A stretch of 40,373 nt of DNA from a virus. The stretch lies in IMG/VR virus record IMGVR_UViG_3300042286_000057. One strand, written 5' to 3'. Positions 719 through 10,755 of the stretch are shown in pieces. Positions within the stretch are counted from its first letter, which is position 1. Each line of letters opens with the position of its first letter. The translations under genes and the position numbers were made by a program. The notes under the pieces were generated by a model, which saw only the letters and a list, made by a program, of their open reading frames with translations, ran no database searches and was not told the DNA's origin.

Positions 719-825
719 TTTCCTTTCCTCGTTTCCGTCTCTCTATGGTTCCCATTATCGCAACCACGGCCCCTACTTGTGAAATATCAATTGGTAGCAA
801 AAAGCGGTTTGCTTATTCCGTTTTG

Positions 826-933
826 TTAGTGAGCCGGCTTTGCTGCCGTTGCTGCCGCCAGTATCTCTTCCTGTATCGCGCAGTTGTACAGCTCTTCGTT
901 GTTGTGATTGGCCTGTTCTGCGTTGAGTGTCAT
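826..933 (-). CDS. hypothetical 35-aa peptide
   Basis: ATG at 933 lies 4 nt after the stop of the upstream gene (938) and has an AAGGA SD. Translates MTLNAEQANHNNEELYNCAIQEEILAAATAAKPAH. Below the ORF-track size cutoff. Confidence 0.3.
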   Translation of the reverse strand: MTLNAEQANHNNEELYNCAIQEEILAAATAAKPAH

Positions 934-937
934 TGTG

Positions 938-1255
938 TTAGTCCTTTTTTGTGTCTAGTAGCTTATTCACCAATGCACTGCCCTCACTGTAAACCTCGCT
1001 GTCCTCAATGCTGAAGCTATCAATTCCGACCAGCATGCAGCCAAGAGCCTTATCCAGCAATTCCACCAAACGATAATGATAATTCGCGGCGGTTACGATG
1101 AATTGGGCGTTGGCTTCCGCTTCTGACTTATCTGGCCATTTCCTGTCGCCCTCCCAACTGTCGGTTTCGTAAGGTTTTACCCATACTCCGCTATGGCTAA
1201 CTACAGCCTCACCATCTACAACGCTCCAAGGTAGCGGCGTATGCCTATCGCTCAT
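938..1255 (-). CDS. hypothetical protein (105 aa; start MSDRHTPLPWSVV)
   Basis: The internal ATG at 1255 overlaps the upstream stop (ATGA), indicating translational coupling. The frame is the same as track ORF 938..1300. Confidence 0.7.
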   Translation of the reverse strand: MSDRHTPLPWSVVDGEAVVSHSGVWVKPYETDSWEGDRKWPDKSEAEANAQFIVTAANYHYRLVELLDKALGCMLVGIDSFSIEDSEVYSEGSALVNKLLDTKKD

Positions 1256-1464
1256 TGTGATTCCCCTCTGGACAACTTCTCGTTTATCCGGCGCATACAC
1301 TCATCCCGATTCTGATGCTGCGACCGGAAGTCTTCGCAAGTCTCCGTCAGGCCGCTTGGGATATGCGTAACCTTTATGCCCTTGGACATTCTTGGAACTT
1401 GCATGCCGTGCCCAGACCTTTGCGGCCACTCCTGGATTACCCAGTCGTTACACTTGCTCATCAT
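1252..1464 (-). CDS. release-factor GGQ-domain-like miniprotein (70 aa) with GMQ in place of GGQ
   Basis: SGHGMQVPRMSKGIKVTHIPSGLTETCEDFRSQHQNR aligns by eye with class-I RF domain 3 ([38 protein letters not shown]). The codons were checked in the DNA: GGC ATG CAA. Confidence 0.75.
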   Translation of the reverse strand: MMSKCNDWVIQEWPQRSGHGMQVPRMSKGIKVTHIPSGLTETCEDFRSQHQNRDECMRRINEKLSRGESQ

Positions 1465-1774
1465 TCGCCTCCTTATTCTTCAGCCTCGCCATAACATCCT
1501 CAAACGATCCGGCGGGCTGGTGGTCGTTGTGGAGTTTGCGGAGACTCTCAGGCCTTGCGTGGTTAATTTTATTCCCGTTTGATGCCGGAAGCGCCTTATC
1601 AATAACAACCCGTTCCTCGCCTGCAAATCCATTTACGCGACCGATTGCGCGCAAAACCTTTACTTTTTGCCCGATGTTTCCTGAGATCCTAGCCTCAACC
1701 ACCACAACCTCATCACCAACCCGCAATGGCCTTCCGTCGATGTCGTGTCCAAGAACTGCGCTCATCTCTTCCAT
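1448..1774 (-). CDS. hypothetical protein (108 aa)
   Basis: Track ORF in the operon. It overlaps its neighbours by 13-17 nt. No recognisable motif. Confidence 0.7.
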   Translation of the reverse strand: MEEMSAVLGHDIDGRPLRVGDEVVVVEARISGNIGQKVKVLRAIGRVNGFAGEERVVIDKALPASNGNKINHARPESLRKLHNDHQPAGSFEDVMARLKNKEANDEQV

Positions 1775-1941
1775 TGCACATACTCCATGAATGCATCAAA
1801 CCCATCGACGTCTACCCCGTTATCGTCTCCCCACTGCTCGGCAGCGTGCTCAAGCATGGCTTGCCGAGCTCCATCCGGCATTTCGTCATTATCAACGGCA
1901 GACATATAGCCAAACACCTGAATTTTCTGATACTCACTCAT
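1762..1941 (-). CDS. hypothetical strongly acidic protein (59 aa)
   Basis: ATG at 1941 overlaps the upstream stop (ATGA) and follows GAGGGGG. Translates MSEYQKIQVFGYMSAVDNDEMPDGARQAMLEHAAEQWGDDNGVDVDGFDAFMEYVQWKR, with 13 D/E against 4 K/R. Below the track cutoff. Confidence 0.6.
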   Translation of the reverse strand: MSEYQKIQVFGYMSAVDNDEMPDGARQAMLEHAAEQWGDDNGVDVDGFDAFMEYVQWKR

Positions 1942-2144
1942 CTCGCCCCCTCAATCTCTTTAAGCAGGGCGCGGGCGCCAGCGCAATCTGCGCCAACGAT
2001 CTTTAGCACCTCAACCAACCTCTCATGGTACTTAGCCGCCACCCGAATACCCGGCGACATCTCCCGGCCTTGTGCGGCTCCGTGAGCGCGGCCTATGGCT
2101 ACCAGGTGGGCGCGGGTTTCTGGGGTGATGTCTACTGTGGGCAT
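1938..2144 (-). CDS. hypothetical protein (68 aa)
   Basis: Track ORF, coupled to both neighbours by overlapping start/stop codons. Confidence 0.65.
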   Translation of the reverse strand: MPTVDITPETRAHLVAIGRAHGAAQGREMSPGIRVAAKYHERLVEVLKIVGADCAGARALLKEIEGAR

Positions 2145-2392
2145 TATTCGACCCTCCAGATACGGACGCCGCCTTCGACATTCCGTGCGACGAACCTGCA
2201 GGGGGCCCCTTTCCTGCGCCGCTTAAACGCAAGCTGCCGGGCCGCCGAAGCCTCTAATCCATCGCTGTGCCCGCCGCGAATGAAAACGCTGTCGCCGGGC
2301 TCCATCTTCGAAAACGGGTACGGCGGGGCCAAACTGCCCGGCGGACGCCGCCCCTCTTTCGGGGGTGGTACGTTCTTCTCGATCTCAGCCAT
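2144..2392 (-). CDS. hypothetical protein (82 aa)
   Basis: First ORF downstream of the 2431..2459 promoter. The YPFSKMEPGDSVFI...GGVRIWRVE pattern is typical of small conserved phage proteins. Confidence 0.7.
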   Translation of the reverse strand: MAEIEKNVPPPKEGRRPPGSLAPPYPFSKMEPGDSVFIRGGHSDGLEASAARQLAFKRRRKGAPCRFVARNVEGGVRIWRVE

Positions 2393-2412
2393 ATCTGCCT
2401 CTATGCCTCTAG

Positions 2413-2753
2413 TTATCCGTTACCCTAAAAACTGTAACCCGTTTTCCGACAGCCGTCAACTTTTCTCAGAGGTAACCGAAAGGGATTTATCTGTTACCTC
2501 CTGCGGGCCGCGCCATTACTGGGTTTGCGCCAGAAAGGTACCGGGTACCAGAAGTTTCAAATCATTACATGTACGGGTAAGTTAAATATGCGGTGTGTAA
2601 AATATTGAGGTTCTCCCGCACGTATAGAATTCACGTACTATCTGTTATCTGGTACCTTTGAATAGAAAATCGCCCGGTTTTCAGGGGGTTAGGTCAGGTA
2701 ACAGATAAATCTATCTGTTACCTTTTCCGCTACCTTTCGGCCTTTCTGTTACC
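2413..2753. repeat. array of six copies of a 12-mer (consensus TTATCTGTTACC), one inverted to form a palindrome
   Basis: Copies: 2413-2424 ttatccgttacc, 2487-2498 ttatctgttacc, 2638-2649 ctatctgttatc, 2697-2708 ggtaacagataa (inverted), 2711-2722 ctatctgttacc, 2742-2753 ctttctgttacc. An AT-rich patch lies at about 2575-2615 and twin GGTACC sites at 2537-2549. Confidence 0.8.
2431..2459 (-). promoter_or_regulatory. sigma70-like promoter for genes 2392 down to 192
   Basis: The minus strand reads TTGACG (2459-2454), a 17-nt spacer, then TACAGT (2436-2431). One 12-mer repeat copy lies between the -10 and the ATG, and another lies upstream of the -35. Confidence 0.5.
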
Positions 2754-5279
2754 TCAGAACGGAACGTAGTCTGCCCCGATGGTTTTATCCAGCTCCTTCC
2801 TGATCCGTTCGTTATCGTCAAGCGGGAGCCCTTTAACCCAAACCCGCCTCGGCTTCCCTTCCCATTTAAGCTGCTTCGGGCAGTGGACCCAGCCCAGCCG
2901 CTGCATCACTTTTGCCAGAGCCCGGCCTTTCGGCATCTCCAATATATCGTCCACGTCAAACTCCGCACCTGGCGGCAGTTGGCTGAGGCAGTCCGTGGCG
3001 ATGGCTTTTTCGGCCACCCCTTTCCCGCCCATCTCGATCCTCTGCGCCACCACGCTCTCGTCGTCGTCCACGTCCGCCGCACGCATGGATTCTTTCTCCG
3101 GCGTCCTGGGGGCGTGGCCGTTCGGGTTAAACGAGTCCGACAGTTTATGGTCCAGTAGCCAACGCCTGAGAGCCCCGGCCTGTTCCAACGCCGCGTGGAC
3201 TTCGGTGAAATAGATATCCATCCGCTGGCCTATCCGGTCCTCCATCTCCTCCGGCGTACTCCATGGCGTAAAGATCACGAACCAGCGCCGGTCCGTGGCC
3301 GACACGGGCAGGGCGTCCGAGTAGTTGGTGAACGCCATGTAGTTCGTCACGTTCAGCGCGTTGTAGCTGTCCTGGCCTTTCTTGTGGATGTCCACCGTGT
3401 TGTTGGTGATTAGGGGCTTCAGGGCGTTCATGGCGTCATATCGGTTGTGGCCGACCAGGCGGACCTCCTCCAGCCCGACGACGCACCGGCCTTCGGCGAA
3501 GCCGTTAAAGTTGCCCATGACCACCGACGGGCCCACGGTCCGCGTGTTAGGCTCACCGATGCAAACGGCGATAAGCTCCAGAAGCAGGGTTTTGCCGTCA
3601 CCCTCGATGCCTTTGATCAATGGCGCGTACCGGATTTTACGGCCGGGGTACTGGACGTTGTGGGCGATGAAGTCCAGCAGCGCCTTGTACACGGCCGGCC
3701 GGTTCCCGGCGATAAACTGTATGTGTCTGTCCATCACCTCCACCGCCCGCTGTCCGTCCGCATCCAGCCAGTCGTCCGCTTCCGGTATGCTGGCGGGGTT
3801 AAAGGTGTTGACGCAATCCCGGCCGCTAACCGTGAACCGCTCCCCAAACTGCGGGCAGTACATGCCCATCTCAACCGTGGGTATCTCCAGATCGTCCAGG
3901 GCATAGCGTAGCGCCGACGGCCGGCGGCCTTCATCGTCCGGTGGTAACTCCCTCTGGTACATGGCGTTAAACCCCTGCGGCGACACCCATTGATCCGTCC
4001 CGTATCGGTATAGCTTGTCGTTGTGCGTGACGTAGTACCAGCGGTCCGCCCATGCAGCCTCCGGCGTATCGACGCGATCCACGCCCCCGCCGGTCCGCTT
4101 GACGGCTTTACGCGCCACGGCAATGGACAGGTGCGAGCCCTCCAGCGCTTTGAAGCGCTCTTGGAACTTCATCGCCAGCCGTTCGCGGTCCACTTCCGCA
4201 AGCTCCGCGTCCCGCCCAACGCCGGCCGCCACGCGCTTCAGTCGTTCCAGATCGTCGGAACCGTCCATCCGGTCCAGCCACTTCTGGATGGGCGCGGCCT
4301 TCTGGATTTCCTGCACTGCGCTCTTTGCCTGCGCCTTCAGATCGACGCCTAGCCAGCCCGCAAGCGCCTTTAGTGCCTCGTCTTCGTCGCCGTTACTATG
4401 CCACTTCGCTACCACCTGAACCGGCGTCATGCCGATTTCTTCGCCGTGGTCGCGGATGCCTTGCGGGTGGATCGACAGGTCCTCTTGCAGGTCCCGGCCC
4501 AGCGCCTCAGACGACACCCGGTAGCCGCCCTGATACTCCTTGGCGTCCTGCCCGAACACATGCGGCACCCAGTCCGCAAACCGGCGCATAGCCTCATACT
4601 GCACCCGCTCCTCCGCCGTCATGGCCTCAACAGCAACGGGCGGGCGGTAGGTCAAAAGGAACAGTTCATCCTCGTCGAACACCTCGGAGCCTTCGGCTAC
4701 TTTCCAGCCCTCCGGCAGCAAGGCCGGCACGCTGTCCAGCCACTGGGCCAGATCAGCGTCCGTCACCTCCGGCAAGTCTTCGGCCGCGCAGTCGAGCAGG
4801 TCGCCGTTCTCCCAGCGGTACGGTTCCCGGAGGTCCGGGTGTATGCCGTAGGCCACAAACTGCTGGCCGGTCATCAGGATTTCTATGGCGTGGTCCCGGC
4901 CGTCCGGAGAGGTCAGTTTCAGTGTTTTCTTTTTACCGCCGCCGGGGCACCGGACCGCCAGCAGCACCCGGCCGGGCTTACCATAGCGGCGGGGTCCGTC
5001 TCCGAACGTCCAGCCGAAGTCAGACGCCACGGTCTCGGTGACGGCTGCATCGTCGATATCAATATCAACGCCGACCACTTCACCCGTGCGGATGCCTACG
5101 TAGTGGCGGGCCTTACCGTTGGCCTTCCAGGCTTCTACCCGGCTCCGATCAATGACCAGGCTGGACCATTTCGGCAGGCGCGGTACTTTCTCCCCCGGCG
5201 CTATGGGCAGGACTTCGTAACCCATCTCCAGCAAGGTCAGGCCGATGTCCTTAATCATGAATCCGTCAGGCTTGCTCAT
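2754..5279 (-). CDS. bifunctional primase-polymerase / SF3 (D5/P4-type) replicative helicase (841 aa)
   Basis: The N-terminus looks like a Prim-Pol domain (GYEVLPIAPGEKVP...GIRTGEVVGVDIDIDD). The C-terminal half has Walker A GIEGDGKT and Walker B VVGLEEV, typical of phage/plasmid primase-helicases. Confidence 0.9.
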   Translation of the reverse strand: MSKPDGFMIKDIGLTLLEMGYEVLPIAPGEKVPRLPKWSSLVIDRSRVEAWKANGKARHYVGIRTGEVVGVDIDIDDAAVTETVASDFGWTFGDGPRRYGKPGRVLLAVRCPGGGKKKTLKLTSPDGRDHAIEILMTGQQFVAYGIHPDLREPYRWENGDLLDCAAEDLPEVTDADLAQWLDSVPALLPEGWKVAEGSEVFDEDELFLLTYRPPVAVEAMTAEERVQYEAMRRFADWVPHVFGQDAKEYQGGYRVSSEALGRDLQEDLSIHPQGIRDHGEEIGMTPVQVVAKWHSNGDEDEALKALAGWLGVDLKAQAKSAVQEIQKAAPIQKWLDRMDGSDDLERLKRVAAGVGRDAELAEVDRERLAMKFQERFKALEGSHLSIAVARKAVKRTGGGVDRVDTPEAAWADRWYYVTHNDKLYRYGTDQWVSPQGFNAMYQRELPPDDEGRRPSALRYALDDLEIPTVEMGMYCPQFGERFTVSGRDCVNTFNPASIPEADDWLDADGQRAVEVMDRHIQFIAGNRPAVYKALLDFIAHNVQYPGRKIRYAPLIKGIEGDGKTLLLELIAVCIGEPNTRTVGPSVVMGNFNGFAEGRCVVGLEEVRLVGHNRYDAMNALKPLITNNTVDIHKKGQDSYNALNVTNYMAFTNYSDALPVSATDRRWFVIFTPWSTPEEMEDRIGQRMDIYFTEVHAALEQAGALRRWLLDHKLSDSFNPNGHAPRTPEKESMRAADVDDDESVVAQRIEMGGKGVAEKAIATDCLSQLPPGAEFDVDDILEMPKGRALAKVMQRLGWVHCPKQLKWEGKPRRVWVKGLPLDDNERIRKELDKTIGADYVPF

Positions 5280-7640: not shown

Positions 7641-10484
7641 ATGAAACACCTACACATCGACCTAGAAACGTACAGTGAGGCCGACCTACCGAAGACCGGC
7701 GGCCAGTTCTACGCCCGGCACCCCTCCACCCGTGTCCTCTTGCTGGCTTACAGCTACGGCGACGAGATCCACCTGATTGATCTTGAGAACGGCGGCGCCC
7801 TGCCGGACTCTTTGCTGGAGGACCTGAAAAACCCCAACGTAACCAAGTGGGCCCACAACGCTGCCTTTGAACGCGCCATCCTGTCCAATGTGCTTAACGT
7901 GCCGTGTGAGCCGGAACAGTGGCGCTGCACGATGGTCTGGGCCATGTCCCTGTCCTTGCCCGCCGGGCTAGACAAACTGAGCGAAGCCCTCAAGCTCGGC
8001 ACTGACGCCAAGGACAAAGAGGGCAAGCGCCTGATTCGCAAGTTCTGCCTGCCGGGCGGAGACGTGCAGCAGGATTTGAACGACGACGACTGGCGGCGGT
8101 TTTGCGAGTACTGCCGTCAAGACGTTGCGGCGGAGATGGCGGTGGCCCGGAGGCTAAAGCGCTACGCCCTGCCGGACAGCGAGTGGCAAGCGTGGGCCGT
8201 TGATCAGCGGGTTAATGACAACGGCCTGCCGATTGACATTGAACTGGTCCAGGCCATCCGGCGCGTGGCGGAGACCTATAAAGAGGACACCGCCGCCGAG
8301 GCCGCCAGGATAACCCAGCTGCCGAACCCCAACAGCCGGGACCAGATGCTGTCATGGCTGGCGGAGAGGGGCGTACAGGCGGATGACCTGACAAGCGGCA
8401 CCGTGGACCAACTATTGGCCGGAACACTGCCGGAGCCCGTCAGGAAGGCCCTGGAATGCCGCCAACAGATGAGCAAGGCCAGTCTTGCCAAGTTCGACGC
8501 CCTGGACCGGGCCACCTGTTCGGACGGCAGGCTCCGAGGCGCGTTCCAGTTTGCCGGGGCCGGCCGGACCGGCCGTTTTGCGGGCCGCATCTTCCAGCCG
8601 CAGAACCTGCCACGGCCGACGCTATCGGACGCGGACATAGACGTGGCCCGAAAGGCAATCCGGACCAGTGACGCCGATACCATGGGCATGATGTACGACG
8701 ATCTGAGCGGGGCGCTGTCTTCGCTGATCCGGTCCGTCATCGCGGCCCCGGCCGGCCGCCAGCTGGTAGTGGCGGATTACGCCAGTATTGAATCCATCAT
8801 GGTGGCGTGGTGCGCCGAGTCTGATTACCTGCTGAACCTCTACCACAAGGGGCTTGACCCCTATAAAGACTTCGCCACGAAAATCTACGGCATCGCCTAT
8901 GAGGACGTGACCAAGGAGCAACGCAGCTTCGCAAAACCCGCCGTTTTAGGCTGTTTTGCTAGTGGGACGCAGGTATTGACTAGGACCGGGCCTGTCGATA
9001 TAGTCAATATCTCTGACCAACATGAATTATGGGACGGCGTTGAATGGGTACGAAGCGAAGGGGCGATACCACAGGGGGAAAAACAGGTTGTGGAGAGAGC
9101 GGGGGTTTTTGTGACCCCCGACCACCTCATCCTGACGGACAGCGGGTGGCAGCAAGTAGCCGACCTAACCGACTACGATTTAAACCGGGCGATACAGTTG
9201 GCGCGTGGCACCTTATCGACTACTGCCGAAAGTACTGGCTGTGTCGGTGCGGCGACTGCTCAAAATTTGAGTGGGTCAACGCTACTAACCTCAACCTCGG
9301 AAAAACACGCAGATGCGTCTCGTGCGCTAACCGCATTACAAGCGCGGAACGCAGCGCCGCGACTAAACTCGGCGTTGAACAGCGCCACTATGACCGGCTT
9401 GCAAACCGCGTGTACGCGCAGCGCGCCCGGTGCCAGAATCCAAACAACCCCGGCTATGCGCACTACGGAGCGAGGGGAATACGATTCAACTTCAAAAGTG
9501 TTGAAGAAGCTGTCGCGTACCTTATCACGCTGCAAGGATGGGATAATCCGGATCTTGAAATTGACCGCATCAACAACGACGGGGGTTACGAGCCCGGCAA
9601 CCTGCGATTCATTGACAGACGCGGAAACACCTCCAACACGAGGCAATCGGGCCGGATTGAGTACGAAGGGGGGACTTACACGTACAGCGAGTTCCGCCGG
9701 CGGTTCGCCCCTAAATACCGCGATGCTAGAACTATCGGGCGCAAGGCGGCACAAGGAAAAACAGCCGAGGAAATCATCGCGGATCAATCCGGTTGCCGAG
9801 GCGCCTACTTACGACCTTCTGAACGCAGGCCCGCGTAACCGATACACGATCTTAACCGATGAAGGCCCGTTGATTGTCCATAACTGCGGCTACGGCCTGG
9901 GGGCCACGGGCTTGCAGCGGTACGCGGAGGCATTCGGCATGGAGATGACCGCCAGCGAGGCGAAGAAGCAGGTAGACACGTTCCGGTCTGCCTACTCCGA
10001 CATCCCGGAGTTCTGGGCCAAACTGGAGACGGCCGTCACCAAAGCTATGCAGTCAAAAGGCCGCACGATCCGAGCCGGGCGGTTCACGTTCCAGTTTGAC
10101 GGCCGGTTTCTGCTTCTGGGCCTACCCAGTGGCCGGCACTTGTATTACTACCAGCCGCGCATGGAGACCGGCAACTTCGGCAAGCTGGAGTTGACCTACG
10201 CCGGCAAGGAGCCGAACGTCCGCATTGGCACGCACCCCGGCAAGATTGTGGAGAACGTGGTCCAGGCGGTTGCCCGTGATCTACTGATCGAAGGGCTCAA
10301 GAACACACAGGCCGCCGGCTTTGAGATTGTCGGACACGTTCATGACGAGATCATCTGCCTGGCGGACGCGGACGACACCGAGGCCGAGCAGCGCCTACTG
10401 GACGCCATGACCAAAACGCCCGCATGGTGCAAAGACGCGCCGATCCGGGCAGACGGATACACCGCCCCGTACTACAGGAAATGA
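7641..10484 (+). CDS. family-A DNA polymerase precursor (947 aa) containing a 311-aa intein
   Basis: The N-terminal 3'-5' exonuclease has motif HIDLETYS. Motif B (RSFAKPAVLG / CGYGLG) is split by a Hint-domain insertion. The C-terminus has HVHDEI (motif C). Confidence 0.95.
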   Translation: MKHLHIDLETYSEADLPKTGGQFYARHPSTRVLLLAYSYGDEIHLIDLENGGALPDSLLEDLKNPNVTKWAHNAAFERAILSNVLNVPCEPEQWRCTMVWAMSLSLPAGLDKLSEALKLGTDAKDKEGKRLIRKFCLPGGDVQQDLNDDDWRRFCEYCRQDVAAEMAVARRLKRYALPDSEWQAWAVDQRVNDNGLPIDIELVQAIRRVAETYKEDTAAEAARITQLPNPNSRDQMLSWLAERGVQADDLTSGTVDQLLAGTLPEPVRKALECRQQMSKASLAKFDALDRATCSDGRLRGAFQFAGAGRTGRFAGRIFQPQNLPRPTLSDADIDVARKAIRTSDADTMGMMYDDLSGALSSLIRSVIAAPAGRQLVVADYASIESIMVAWCAESDYLLNLYHKGLDPYKDFATKIYGIAYEDVTKEQRSFAKPAVLGCFASGTQVLTRTGPVDIVNISDQHELWDGVEWVRSEGAIPQGEKQVVERAGVFVTPDHLILTDSGWQQVADLTDYDLNRAIQLARGTLSTTAESTGCVGAATAQNLSGSTLLTSTSEKHADASRALTALQARNAAPRLNSALNSATMTGLQTACTRSAPGARIQTTPAMRTTERGEYDSTSKVLKKLSRTLSRCKDGIIRILKLTASTTTGVTSPATCDSLTDAETPPTRGNRAGLSTKGGLTRTASSAGGSPLNTAMLELSGARRHKEKQPRKSSRINPVAEAPTYDLLNAGPRNRYTILTDEGPLIVHNCGYGLGATGLQRYAEAFGMEMTASEAKKQVDTFRSAYSDIPEFWAKLETAVTKAMQSKGRTIRAGRFTFQFDGRFLLLGLPSGRHLYYYQPRMETGNFGKLELTYAGKEPNVRIGTHPGKIVENVVQAVARDLLIEGLKNTQAAGFEIVGHVHDEIICLADADDTEAEQRLLDAMTKTPAWCKDAPIRADGYTAPYYRK
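9044..9838 (+). CDS. HNH-type homing endonuclease ORF nested in the intein, in the -1 frame relative to the polymerase
   Basis: Frame-2 translation from about 9179 reads GDTVGAWHLIDYCRKYWLCRCGDCSKFEW...YGARGIRFNF...EIDRINNDGGYEPGNLRFIDRRGNTSN. This is a Zn-finger plus HNH-like core, followed by a C-terminal helix region ending at TAA 9836-9838. The true start is unknown: ATG 9044, GTG 9146, or entry by frameshifting. Confidence 0.75.
   Translation: MGTKRRGDTTGGKTGCGESGGFCDPRPPHPDGQRVAASSRPNRLRFKPGDTVGAWHLIDYCRKYWLCRCGDCSKFEWVNATNLNLGKTRRCVSCANRITSAERSAATKLGVEQRHYDRLANRVYAQRARCQNPNNPGYAHYGARGIRFNFKSVEEAVAYLITLQGWDNPDLEIDRINNDGGYEPGNLRFIDRRGNTSNTRQSGRIEYEGGTYTYSEFRRRFAPKYRDARTIGRKAAQGKTAEEIIADQSGCRGAYLRPSERRPA
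9179..9185 (+). promoter_or_regulatory. candidate -1 programmed frameshift site T_TTA_AAC
   Basis: The polymerase-frame codons are GAT TTA AAC (9177-9185), so the heptamer is in X_XXY_YYZ register. A -1 slip enters the HNH frame at CCG (9185), exactly where HNH-family similarity starts. Confidence 0.4.
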
Positions 10485-10488
10485 CGCC

Positions 10489-10755
10489 ATGAAAGAATCC
10501 ACCATTGAGGCTAGATTGTGCCGCCGGGTTAAAGCCCTCGGCGGTACGTGCGAGAAGTTCACCAGTCCGGGGCGGCGGTCCGTACCGGATAGGCTGATCA
10601 CGCTGCCCGGCGGCCGGGTTATCTTCGCCGAGTGTAAAGCCCCCGGCAAGAAACCCACCGAACTACAGGCCAAAGACCACGAACGCCGCCGGGCCCTCGG
10701 TTGCGAGGTCTACGTTATCGACTCACCGGAGGCCGCCGATGCTTTCCCGGAGTAG
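10489..10755 (+). CDS. VRR-NUC domain nuclease (88 aa)
   Basis: EARLCRRVKALGG...PDRLITLPGGRVIFAECKAPGKKPTELQ matches the VRR-NUC PD-(D/E)XK pattern. Confidence 0.85.
   Translation: MKESTIEARLCRRVKALGGTCEKFTSPGRRSVPDRLITLPGGRVIFAECKAPGKKPTELQAKDHERRRALGCEVYVIDSPEAADAFPE

Follow-up and report, generated by a model that had tools for sequence, protein, structure and literature searches.

An HNH-like endonuclease gene probably nested out of frame in an intein of a phage family A DNA polymerase

This report concerns a DNA polymerase gene in a stretch of viral DNA of 40,373 nucleotides (IMG/VR record IMGVR_UViG_3300042286_000057; "the window" refers to this whole stretch). An insert with the features of a mobile intein interrupts the gene and carries, in the -1 frame, a second open reading frame (ORF) for an HNH-like homing endonuclease (HEN), while the polymerase frame stays open from end to end. 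We consider it probable that the polymerase gene with its mobile intein constitutes a module of two overlapping genes, which would operate as follows. In the polymerase frame, the N-extein and the N-terminal half of the Hint (splicing) domain would be followed by about 205 codons of stop-free filler, the C-terminal Hint half and the C-extein; the two Hint halves would fold together and splice out the intein together with its filler, so restoring motif B of the polymerase. The -1 frame would be a separate gene at which ribosomes most likely initiate internally, at ATG 9044, with a Shine-Dalgarno (SD)-like sequence supplied by the Hint codons for W-D-G. Its product, a 264-residue HNH-like HEN of the zinc-ribbon/AP2 type, would cut intein-free polymerase alleles of co-infecting phages, and repair would copy the whole module in.

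Overlapping frames under selection

The nested ORF (264 codons) lies inside the polymerase ORF (947 codons), and in this central point the original prediction, which was made from the letters of the window and placed an HNH-like endonuclease in the -1 frame of an open polymerase frame, holds. The overlap is larger than the approximately 660 nt of dual coding that had been proposed, as it amounts to 795 nt and reaches across both Hint halves. The nested ORF starts inside the N-Hint region, and its stop codon, correctly placed at 9836–9838, lies inside block F and not just before blocks F and G.

Several stop codons had been expected by chance in an overlap of this kind, and the statistics agree. 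When the synonymous codons of the HEN core were resampled with the codon usage of the polymerase exteins, a mean of 6.3 stops was expected in the polymerase frame and none is seen in the window; not one of the 3000 resamples was stop-free. Shuffling the codon order of the HEN core gave P = 0.047, and the third frame has 16 stops across the same region. CTG is used for 3 of 11 leucines in the HEN core as against 27 of 49 in the N-extein. Three unrelated annotated phages give a stronger result than the window, with 4.6–17 stops expected and 0 observed.

Relatives were found in both annotated phages and metagenomes. A tblastn search of INPHARED with the HEN-frame protein gave matches beneath annotated polymerase genes, the hosts including the "intein-containing DNA polymerase precursor" of Jersey-like Salmonella phages, Streptococcus Javan phages and a Gardnerella phage. 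On translation of the annotated loci, the polymerase coding sequence (CDS) reads through the filler, with the HEN at -1 in the Salmonella phage and at +1 in the two Gram-positive phages. A profile built from four sequences (the window and the annotated phages) was used to scan IMG/VR and metagenome contigs and yielded 160 loci; this survey comprises the best 80 matches per collection and is biased towards relatives of the query. Among the 166 loci with a HEN match, the HEN is out of frame within a polymerase-sized open frame in 162 (91 at -1, 71 at +1) and in frame with a long ORF in none, and the remaining four are apparently free-standing or broken. Every host ORF encodes a family A polymerase, and the interruption falls at one of two or three neighbouring positions in the region of motif B. 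When the HEN sequences were placed in a neighbour-joining tree, the 69 of the +1 class made up a single pure clade and 84 of the 89 of the -1 class another, and from this near-monophyly of the frame classes it follows that both overlapping configurations are old and stable.

The two classes serve as reciprocal controls in a test of codon pairs, read in the HEN frame. Pairs that create host-frame stops in the -1 class (NTG followed by A, and NTA followed by R) are absent from that class, where 337 were expected, and occur 817 times in the +1 class (706 expected). The corresponding pairs for the +1 class (NNT followed by AA, AG or GA) are absent there with 623 expected, and occur 1093 times in the -1 class (1000 expected). 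Methionine followed by a codon beginning with A is found in 0 of 146 instances in HENs of the -1 class versus 89 of 224 in those of the +1 class, so that the no-stop constraint reaches the protein sequence of the HEN itself.

Substitutions were analysed in family-wide sequence pairs with 70–97% DNA identity. Differences fall predominantly on the third position of HEN codons (57–59%), with 15–17% at position 2. Amino-acid identity in the HEN frame is 0.86 for the -1 class and 0.81 for the +1 class; the host frame, with 0.69 and 0.54, cannot be told apart from the unused third frame (0.66 and 0.53). Purifying selection on the HEN frame extends across clades that are 50–70% divergent. The eight differences between the inteins of the window and of its closest relative, L006, are too few to separate the frames. 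Judged by these family-wide patterns, the HEN frame is a protein under purifying selection and the filler in the polymerase frame is held to a strict no-stop rule and free of amino-acid constraint, and the comparison thereby demonstrates selection on both open frames.

Several further points of the original prediction can be settled from these data. Its view of the low-complexity polymerase frame as the out-of-frame reading of another gene agrees with the host-frame identities. A possible conservation of both frames in relatives applies in full to the constrained HEN frame, and to the polymerase frame only in that it is free of stops. The HEN is in frame with Hint in none of the 166 loci, and the relatives lack stops in the HEN frame. 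That a free-standing type of endonuclease has been overprinted on an intein linker, as opposed to an in-frame fusion, is likewise supported by the selection described here, by the internal start and by free-standing relatives.

The nested product

The motifs on which the endonuclease call was first based are all present (C69-x-x-C72...C91-x-x-C94, Y141-G-A-R-G-I146 and D174-R-I-N-N-D...N186-L-R-F...N198; Table 1), and in the HEN family alignment N186 and N198 are invariant and D174 nearly so. PHROGs families annotated as "HNH endonuclease" match the -1 product (phrog_374, E = 3e-29; phrog_3377, E = 7e-21), and with the family profile a weak match to the beta-beta-alpha-Me motif of I-HmuI (PDB 1U3E, residues 65–117, E = 0.094) is obtained. 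An AlphaFold2 model made with a 33-sequence alignment has a mean pLDDT (predicted local distance difference test) of 85, with residues 45–250 mostly above 90, and displays a beta-beta-alpha topology (strands 172–175 and 187–190, helix 192–197) at pLDDT >90. Foldseek found 96 matches to this model in BFVD at E <= 0.001, mostly free-standing phage proteins described as "HNH", "AP2/ERF-domain" or "homing endonuclease", of which the top match is a 247-residue uncharacterised protein of the Jersey-like phage LPSE1. Free-standing relatives thus comprise many BFVD proteins and, in addition, the loci L012, L143 and L004.

Several results weigh against the interpretation given at the outset. Arg175 (9566–9568) is invariant at the position of the general-base histidine, in nested and free-standing members alike; searches of Pfam and NCBIfam with the nested product gave no match; and Foldseek found no match to the HEN model in the PDB at E <= 0.001, probably because the chain has several domains. 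These three points together leave the nuclease chemistry unproven. On the side of the intein, the Pfam Hint models stay below threshold for the full intein and for a synthetic mini-intein (Hint_2, E = 0.11) and match at E < 0.01 in just 2 of 24 relatives, and AlphaFold2 applied to the polymerase-frame intein as a single sequence without alignment gave a pLDDT of 38, which is uninformative as to disorder of the filler. As for the start, the SD-like GGGACGG of the window is only of moderate strength, the conserved W-D-G residues also impose it, and GTG 9146, with a weak SD, is an alternative start. Finally, the scope of the survey leaves room for in-frame versions among more distant relatives.

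By sequence, then, the nested product looks like an HNH-type HEN that lacks one defining feature of that family. Its description as a complete, well-formed HNH endonuclease stands as regards the motifs and the PHROGs label and fails as regards the canonical first histidine, which is an arginine, and the Pfam match, which is missing. As the motif is without the catalytic histidine, HNH membership is not established. The free-standing members share the D-R motif, so that the arginine would be a family trait and not a sign of decay.

Throughout the family, nested and free-standing, an invariant D-R is found where I-HmuI-type HNH enzymes carry the catalytic D-H.

Allele states and mobility

A protein search with the precursor identified a homologue of 947 residues with 97% identity (P0001/L006), intein-free homologues of 636 residues with about 96% identity (P0003–P0005) and a form of 806 residues (P0002/L007). 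At the DNA level, the exteins of L006 and the window are 8–10% different, and the inteins differ at 8 of 933 nt (0.9%); a near-identical intein within such divergent exteins implies recent mobility. Two further relatives, L008 and L009, are exact empty sites, which lack precisely the 933 nt and in which motif B is restored (...AKPAVLG-CGYGLG...); in L008, the sequence at the insertion site reads ...GCCGTTTTAGGC directly followed by TGCGGCTACGGC... In L007 the HEN core has been removed by an in-frame deletion. By sequence comparison these alleles correspond to the stages of a homing cycle (empty, invaded and HEN-decayed) and indicate recent horizontal transfer of the intein. Comparison of the close relatives revealed no clear co-conversion tract beside the intein, only a mosaic pattern.

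The alternative that survives best, although we consider it improbable, is that the -1 ORF is a relic in decay or encodes a DNA-binding protein without catalytic activity, with the intein being mostly inherited vertically or mobilised in trans by another nuclease. This would be in keeping with the family-wide replacement of the catalytic histidine, with the lack of a matching Pfam nuclease family and with the existence of the HEN-deleted L007. A relic, however, would hardly remain under purifying selection across such divergent clades, nor would it be expected to yield a confident fold prediction with invariant motif residues. The near-identical inteins in divergent exteins and the exact empty sites bespeak recent and active homing, and the same D-R motif recurs in free-standing members. 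We therefore continue to favour a functional HEN encoded by the nested gene.

Two observations on this phage lineage may be added. The C-extein of the window (9885–10484) differs from the intein-free L008 and L009 at 2 of about 600 nt, and the N-extein (7641–8951) differs by 8–10% from all relatives; by this comparison the polymerase gene of the window is a mosaic produced by recombination, its breakpoint lying at the intein or close to it. L006, the closest relative, carries an additional free-standing endonuclease of 191 residues and the NUMOD4/HNH_3 type (L006:6200–6772; H-L-D-G-N...N-L), inserted where the next gene downstream of the polymerase ends. It is absent from the window, where the equivalent position is the 3' end of a small ORF (10489–10755), and this phage lineage seems to be a hot spot for homing endonucleases of several unrelated kinds.

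Translation of the nested gene

On the evidence of its conserved signals, internal initiation is the best-supported mechanism for expression of the nested gene. In the window, GGGACGG is formed by the W-D-G codons of Hint, and ATG 9044 arises within GAA-TGG (E-W) and is the first codon after the upstream TGA of its frame. The SD duplex has a calculated energy of -6.4 kcal/mol, compared with -6.1 for that of the polymerase gene itself and a median of -6.0 for 36 long ORFs in the window, and this value is reached by 6.4% of random positions. The local RNA at the nested start is weakly structured, less so than shuffled sequences.

Loci of the -1 class typically have a HEN frame that opens at an ATG 70 nt upstream of block B or shortly before it, and ATG 9044 of the window has exactly this position; some loci of this class use -64 or -85 instead. 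The last base of the codon ahead of the conserved Hint tryptophan completes a start codon (ATG or GTG) in 60 of 65 loci of the -1 class versus 19 of 44 of the +1 class, in which a start at this site would serve no purpose (Fisher P = 2.5e-8), and for ATG alone the counts are 42 of 65 versus 6 of 44 (P = 1.5e-7). The +1 class has an ATG elsewhere, 17 nt upstream of the block B threonine codon in about 40 of 56 distinct loci, and this is usually preceded by AAGGAGG (the K-E-V codons of Hint; duplex energy about -12 kcal/mol). The comparison thus establishes conserved internal starts with SD-like sequences, and these point to separate translation over frameshifting; for the window itself we lean towards ATG 9044 as the actual start.

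Programmed -1 frameshifting at T_TTA_AAC, which would produce a fusion of N-extein, N-Hint and HEN ending at 9838, has some initial appeal, as the heptamer is a canonical X_XXY_YYZ in the exact register of the polymerase frame and is situated at the very point where the two frames exchange meaning. We nevertheless regard such a fusion as very improbable. Among 69 distinct -1-class loci, the heptamer occurs in the lineage of the window itself (the window, L006 and L007) and in L132, there at a different position. In the 71 loci of the +1 class, -1 slippage is impossible, yet these have the same architecture and a strong SD plus ATG. Structure downstream of the heptamer is not significant (z = -1.35; 18 of 200 shuffles fold as well), and the HEN frame is open for 44 codons upstream of the heptamer to the conserved ATG, for which there would be no need under frameshifting. 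We rate the heptamer as a coincidence or, at most, a minor contributor next to internal initiation.

Identity of the insert

The interrupted gene is recognised as a family A polymerase by Pfam (PF00476, E = 1.9e-17) and PHROGs (phrog_17, E = 3e-107). The insert begins with CFASGTQVLT, has TPDH in its interior and ends with ...GPLIVHN followed by cysteine, its boundaries being Cys1 (TGT 8952), His-Asn (9879–9884) and Cys+1 (9885). When the joined N- and C-Hint halves of 24 sequences were aligned, C1, W27, G29, T55, H58, H105 and N106 proved invariant and the +1 cysteine nearly so. Among 99 unique relatives, the presumed position 1 is cysteine in 92, and the +1 residue is cysteine in 96 and serine in 3, HN having belonged to the search pattern used for this count. 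A profile of the 24-sequence alignment matches only inteins in the PDB, the best being NEQ068, the N-fragment of the Nanoarchaeum polymerase split intein (E = 3.7e-4), followed by PI-MtuI/RecA mini-inteins; a blastn search of INPHARED with the intein DNA in distant mode gave no match. Conservation of T-x-x-H, C1 and HN/C+1, the exact absence of 933 nt from empty alleles and the matches to inteins in the PDB lead us to call the insert an intein despite its non-recognition by Pfam, a call that these comparisons support. We infer that the protein is spliced, since at least 160 phage lineages carry the insert in motif B of a polymerase that is essential.

Intron-borne HNH endonucleases, such as I-HmuI, are well known from phage polymerase genes, and the GenBank annotation of NC_013600 describes the homologous region as a type I self-splicing intron. 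That the insert is a group I intron, across which the polymerase frame is open only incidentally, is nevertheless scarcely credible. No intron family was found by Rfam at E <= 1 in 8700–10100, and the host frame is free of stops in 162 of 166 loci, for which an intron would have no need. The edges of the insert are the invariant intein residues (C1...T-x-x-H...H-N/C+1), in the host frame and with a profile that matches solved inteins, and its length is exactly 311 codons.

An assembly or sequencing artefact, a concern raised by the original prediction, in which a canonical intein with Hint, HNH and Hint in one frame is masked by two indels that compensate each other (in principle, everything would fall into a single frame given one base missing near 9180 and one too many near 9800), is already refuted by comparative data, as the same frame structure is present in the independent assemblies L006, L007 and L091 and in 160 further loci of two frame classes, these loci come from isolates and metagenomes and from many sequencing groups, and frame-specific stop avoidance, conserved internal starts and a stop-free "wrong" frame are unexpected from an artefact.

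Table 1. Features of the polymerase gene, its putative intein and the nested endonuclease gene (window coordinates)
Feature	Position	Strand	Remarks
Family A DNA polymerase precursor ORF	7641–10484	+	947 codons plus stop; open right through the intein
Class-1-type intein	8952–9884	+	311 codons, 933 nt; in polymerase motif B (...AKPAVLG/C...HN/CGYGLG)
N-terminal Hint half (blocks A–B)	8952–9175	+	TPDH at 9114–9125; the polymerase frame is the conserved frame here
Proposed initiation region of the nested gene	9031–9046	+	SD-like GGGACGG 9031–9037, 6-nt spacer with upstream TGA, ATG 9044–9046
Nested ORF, HNH-like HEN	9044–9838	+	-1 frame, 264 codons plus TAA
HEN N-terminal leader, residues 1–44	9044–9175	+	Overprinted on Hint; predicted disorder, pLDDT <50 at residues 1–41
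Polymerase-frame filler	9176–9795	+	S/T/A/R-rich read-through of the HEN gene; sole constraint is absence of stops
T_TTA_AAC heptamer	9179–9185	+	In polymerase-frame register; spells HEN residues F-K-P
CxxC...CxxC zinc-ribbon-like motif (C69, C72, C91, C94)	9248–9325	+	Nearly invariant in the HEN alignment
In-frame deletion of L007, 423 nt	9343–9765	+	HEN core gone; 170-residue mini-intein left
Y141-G-A-R-G-I146, AP2-like DNA-binding strand	9464–9481	+	R144 and G145 invariant; Y141 and I146 nearly so
Beta-beta-alpha-Me-like motif, D174-R175-I-N-N-D...N186-L-R-F...N198	9563–9637	+	Arg replaces the general-base His
C-terminal Hint half (blocks F–G)	9796–9884	+	Ends ...TYDLLNAGPRNRYTILTDEGPLIVHN

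Genomic context and further loci

The polymerase gene belongs to a phage replication module, consisting of a DUF2800/PD-(D/E)XK nuclease, an Enc34-type ssDNA-binding protein, the polymerase, a small ORF and a SNF2 helicase. Searches by tblastn with the HEN found it in 763 phage records and hundreds of metagenome stretches, and scans of viral and genome contigs with a single-sequence pattern found one distant locus each. Homologues of the protein encoded by 9176–9835 number 35 among 5.8 billion protein clusters, nearly all of them from contigs about 1 kb long, on which only part of the polymerase ORF is present and gene calling resorts to the nested ORF instead.

Matches to "dUTPase" genes were considered as a second host gene and rejected, as they are mis-annotated free-standing HENs in frame with their own CDS. 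Two such cases are L170:1297–2124 (Clostridioides phage phiCDKH02 gp43) and L172:1492–2181 (Staphylococcus phage PT94), which are annotated as dUTPase and are probably mis-annotated members of the endonuclease family.

Several individual loci are unusual. L075 (IMG/VR UViG_638275545, Jersey-like and resembling the record of Salmonella phage SS3e) has a polymerase that is broken across three frames, with the N-Hint half in frame with the HEN; it is the only one of the loci analysed here with any continuity between Hint and HEN, and represents either old sequencing errors or a degenerate allele. In L019 (1820–3699), the host polymerase frame is broken upstream of the HEN, and the HEN frame is open for 600 nt upstream; this may be a frameshifted or decaying allele. 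In about 20 loci of the +1 class (e.g. L002 and L003), the HEN stop codon lies 19–28 nt past the end of the intein, so that the HEN gene overlaps the conserved motif B codons, and in 13 loci of the -1 class the stop codon TAA is built from the codons for the terminal His-Asn (CAT-AAC). In L171 (Sodalis phage SO-1, NC_013600), the polymerase (792–3980) and the overlapping HNH ORF (2276–3034) are annotated as two CDSs, and the region bears the GenBank label "type I self-splicing intron"; our evidence indicates an intein with a nested out-of-frame HEN.

Implications

The arrangement has practical consequences for annotation. Gene callers keep only the long polymerase ORF, and the nested endonuclease vanishes from protein databases; the GenBank labels for the region vary between intein, group I intron and none at all. 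For the evolution of inteins, the family provides direct support on a large scale for a scenario in which splicing domains came first and were invaded later by free-standing HENs, and it shows that the non-fused state can remain stable across deep clades. The filler indicates that these inteins tolerate about 200 residues of arbitrary sequence. For the study of overlapping genes, nature has provided reciprocal controls in the -1 and +1 classes, by which the effect of a no-stop rule on codon and dipeptide use in the other frame can be followed, and the Jersey-like Salmonella phages offer a tractable system for the translation of the nested gene and for homing.

A wider reading, which we offer tentatively and which may well prove too generous, is that these loci make up a family of "bicistronic inteins" in phage family A polymerases that is very large and old and has not been described before. 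In such a family, the HEN would obligatorily be a separate out-of-frame gene that is never fused to the Hint domain, conserved Hint codons would contain its ribosome-binding site (RBS) and start codon, the no-stop rule of the host frame would mould its coding sequence, and its beta-beta-alpha-Me site would have arginine where all characterised HNH enzymes use histidine. If this is true, intein and HEN are to be viewed as two co-adapted genes and not as one protein, in-frame fusion is selected against, and the family has a different nuclease chemistry to offer.

Comparison with known systems

Canonical bifunctional inteins, whose in-frame HEN is of the LAGLIDADG type, as in PI-SceI, or of the HNH type (Dalgaard 1997, as cited in bioRxiv 10.1101/2025.01.02.630785), share with the present system an insertion site in a conserved catalytic motif, the Hint blocks A, B, F and G, and a homing cycle of empty, invaded and HEN-decayed alleles. 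They differ in that their HEN is a domain of the same polypeptide, whereas here it is never in frame (0 of 166 loci). I-HmuI (PDB 1U3E), the one nuclease of known structure to which the motif region has a sequence match, is likewise part of a mobile element in a phage DNA polymerase gene; unlike the nested HEN, it has a catalytic D-H and resides in an RNA-spliced group I intron, whereas the present family has D-R and no intron is detectable.

Fractured genes, in which a free-standing HEN gene lies between the halves of a split intein, were reportedly described by Dassa and co-workers in 2009. In these, too, a single locus holds the Hint halves and the HEN as translation units of their own, which supports the view that the splicing domain was there first and that a HEN invaded later. 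There, however, the host gene is split into two ORFs and splicing occurs in trans, whereas here a continuous host frame is overprinted by the HEN.

A hidden out-of-frame HNH endonuclease was described in 2025 for the ShiLan domain, an insertion without Hint domains in a mycobacteriophage methylase (PMC11855218). Common to both systems are a host frame that is stop-free through the insertion, an HNH in an alternate frame, a homing-like distribution and a route of translation that is an open question. The ShiLan insertion is thought to stay in the host protein, and no RBS was detected, so that leaderless initiation at GTG has been proposed; here, in contrast, a full set of intein splicing motifs borders the insert, and SD and ATG are conserved.

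A cyanobacterial dnaX intein with an out-of-frame HEN and a sporadic distribution has been reported recently (bioRxiv 10.64898/2026.09.14.751524). In that text, "HNH" occurs 0 times and "LAGLIDADG" 3 times, which suggests a different HEN family, and its host gene, as given there, is cellular, in contrast to the phage family A polymerase considered here.

The closest precedent is a study of out-of-frame intein HENs (bioRxiv 10.1101/2025.01.02.630785), which describes an Endo VII-like HEN "in frame 3" as well as antisense LAGLIDADG and VSR-like HENs, proposes that free-standing HENs invade inteins, and predicts that such inteins are under-annotated. With this and the other preprint of 2025–2026, the assertion of the original prediction that no precedent had been described has to be withdrawn. 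The similarities are extensive: a HEN ORF on the same strand occupies another frame between the Hint halves, the frame of extein and intein is open, its in-frame reading is without recognisable structure, the relatives of the HEN are free-standing, and the origin is seen in invasion by a free-standing HEN. The differences concern, firstly, the HEN, which is Endo VII-like there (IPR004211) and HNH-like here, with a zinc ribbon, YGxRGI and DRxxD...N and without a Pfam match, and secondly the host genes, which are terminase, minor capsid, thymidylate synthase and DNA polymerase III alpha there and a family A polymerase, interrupted in motif B, here. The architecture is called rare in that study, and the terms "start codon" and "ribosom" are absent from its text; the present analysis, in contrast, covers at least 160 loci in two frame classes, with conserved SD and ATG signals and measured selection. 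We found no literature on a polymerase motif B intein with the HNH-like family studied here. The arrangement in general is thus already known, with its first description dating from 2025, and what is new is the HEN family, the host gene and the much larger scale, together with the quantitative evidence for selection, reciprocal stop avoidance and conserved initiation signals.

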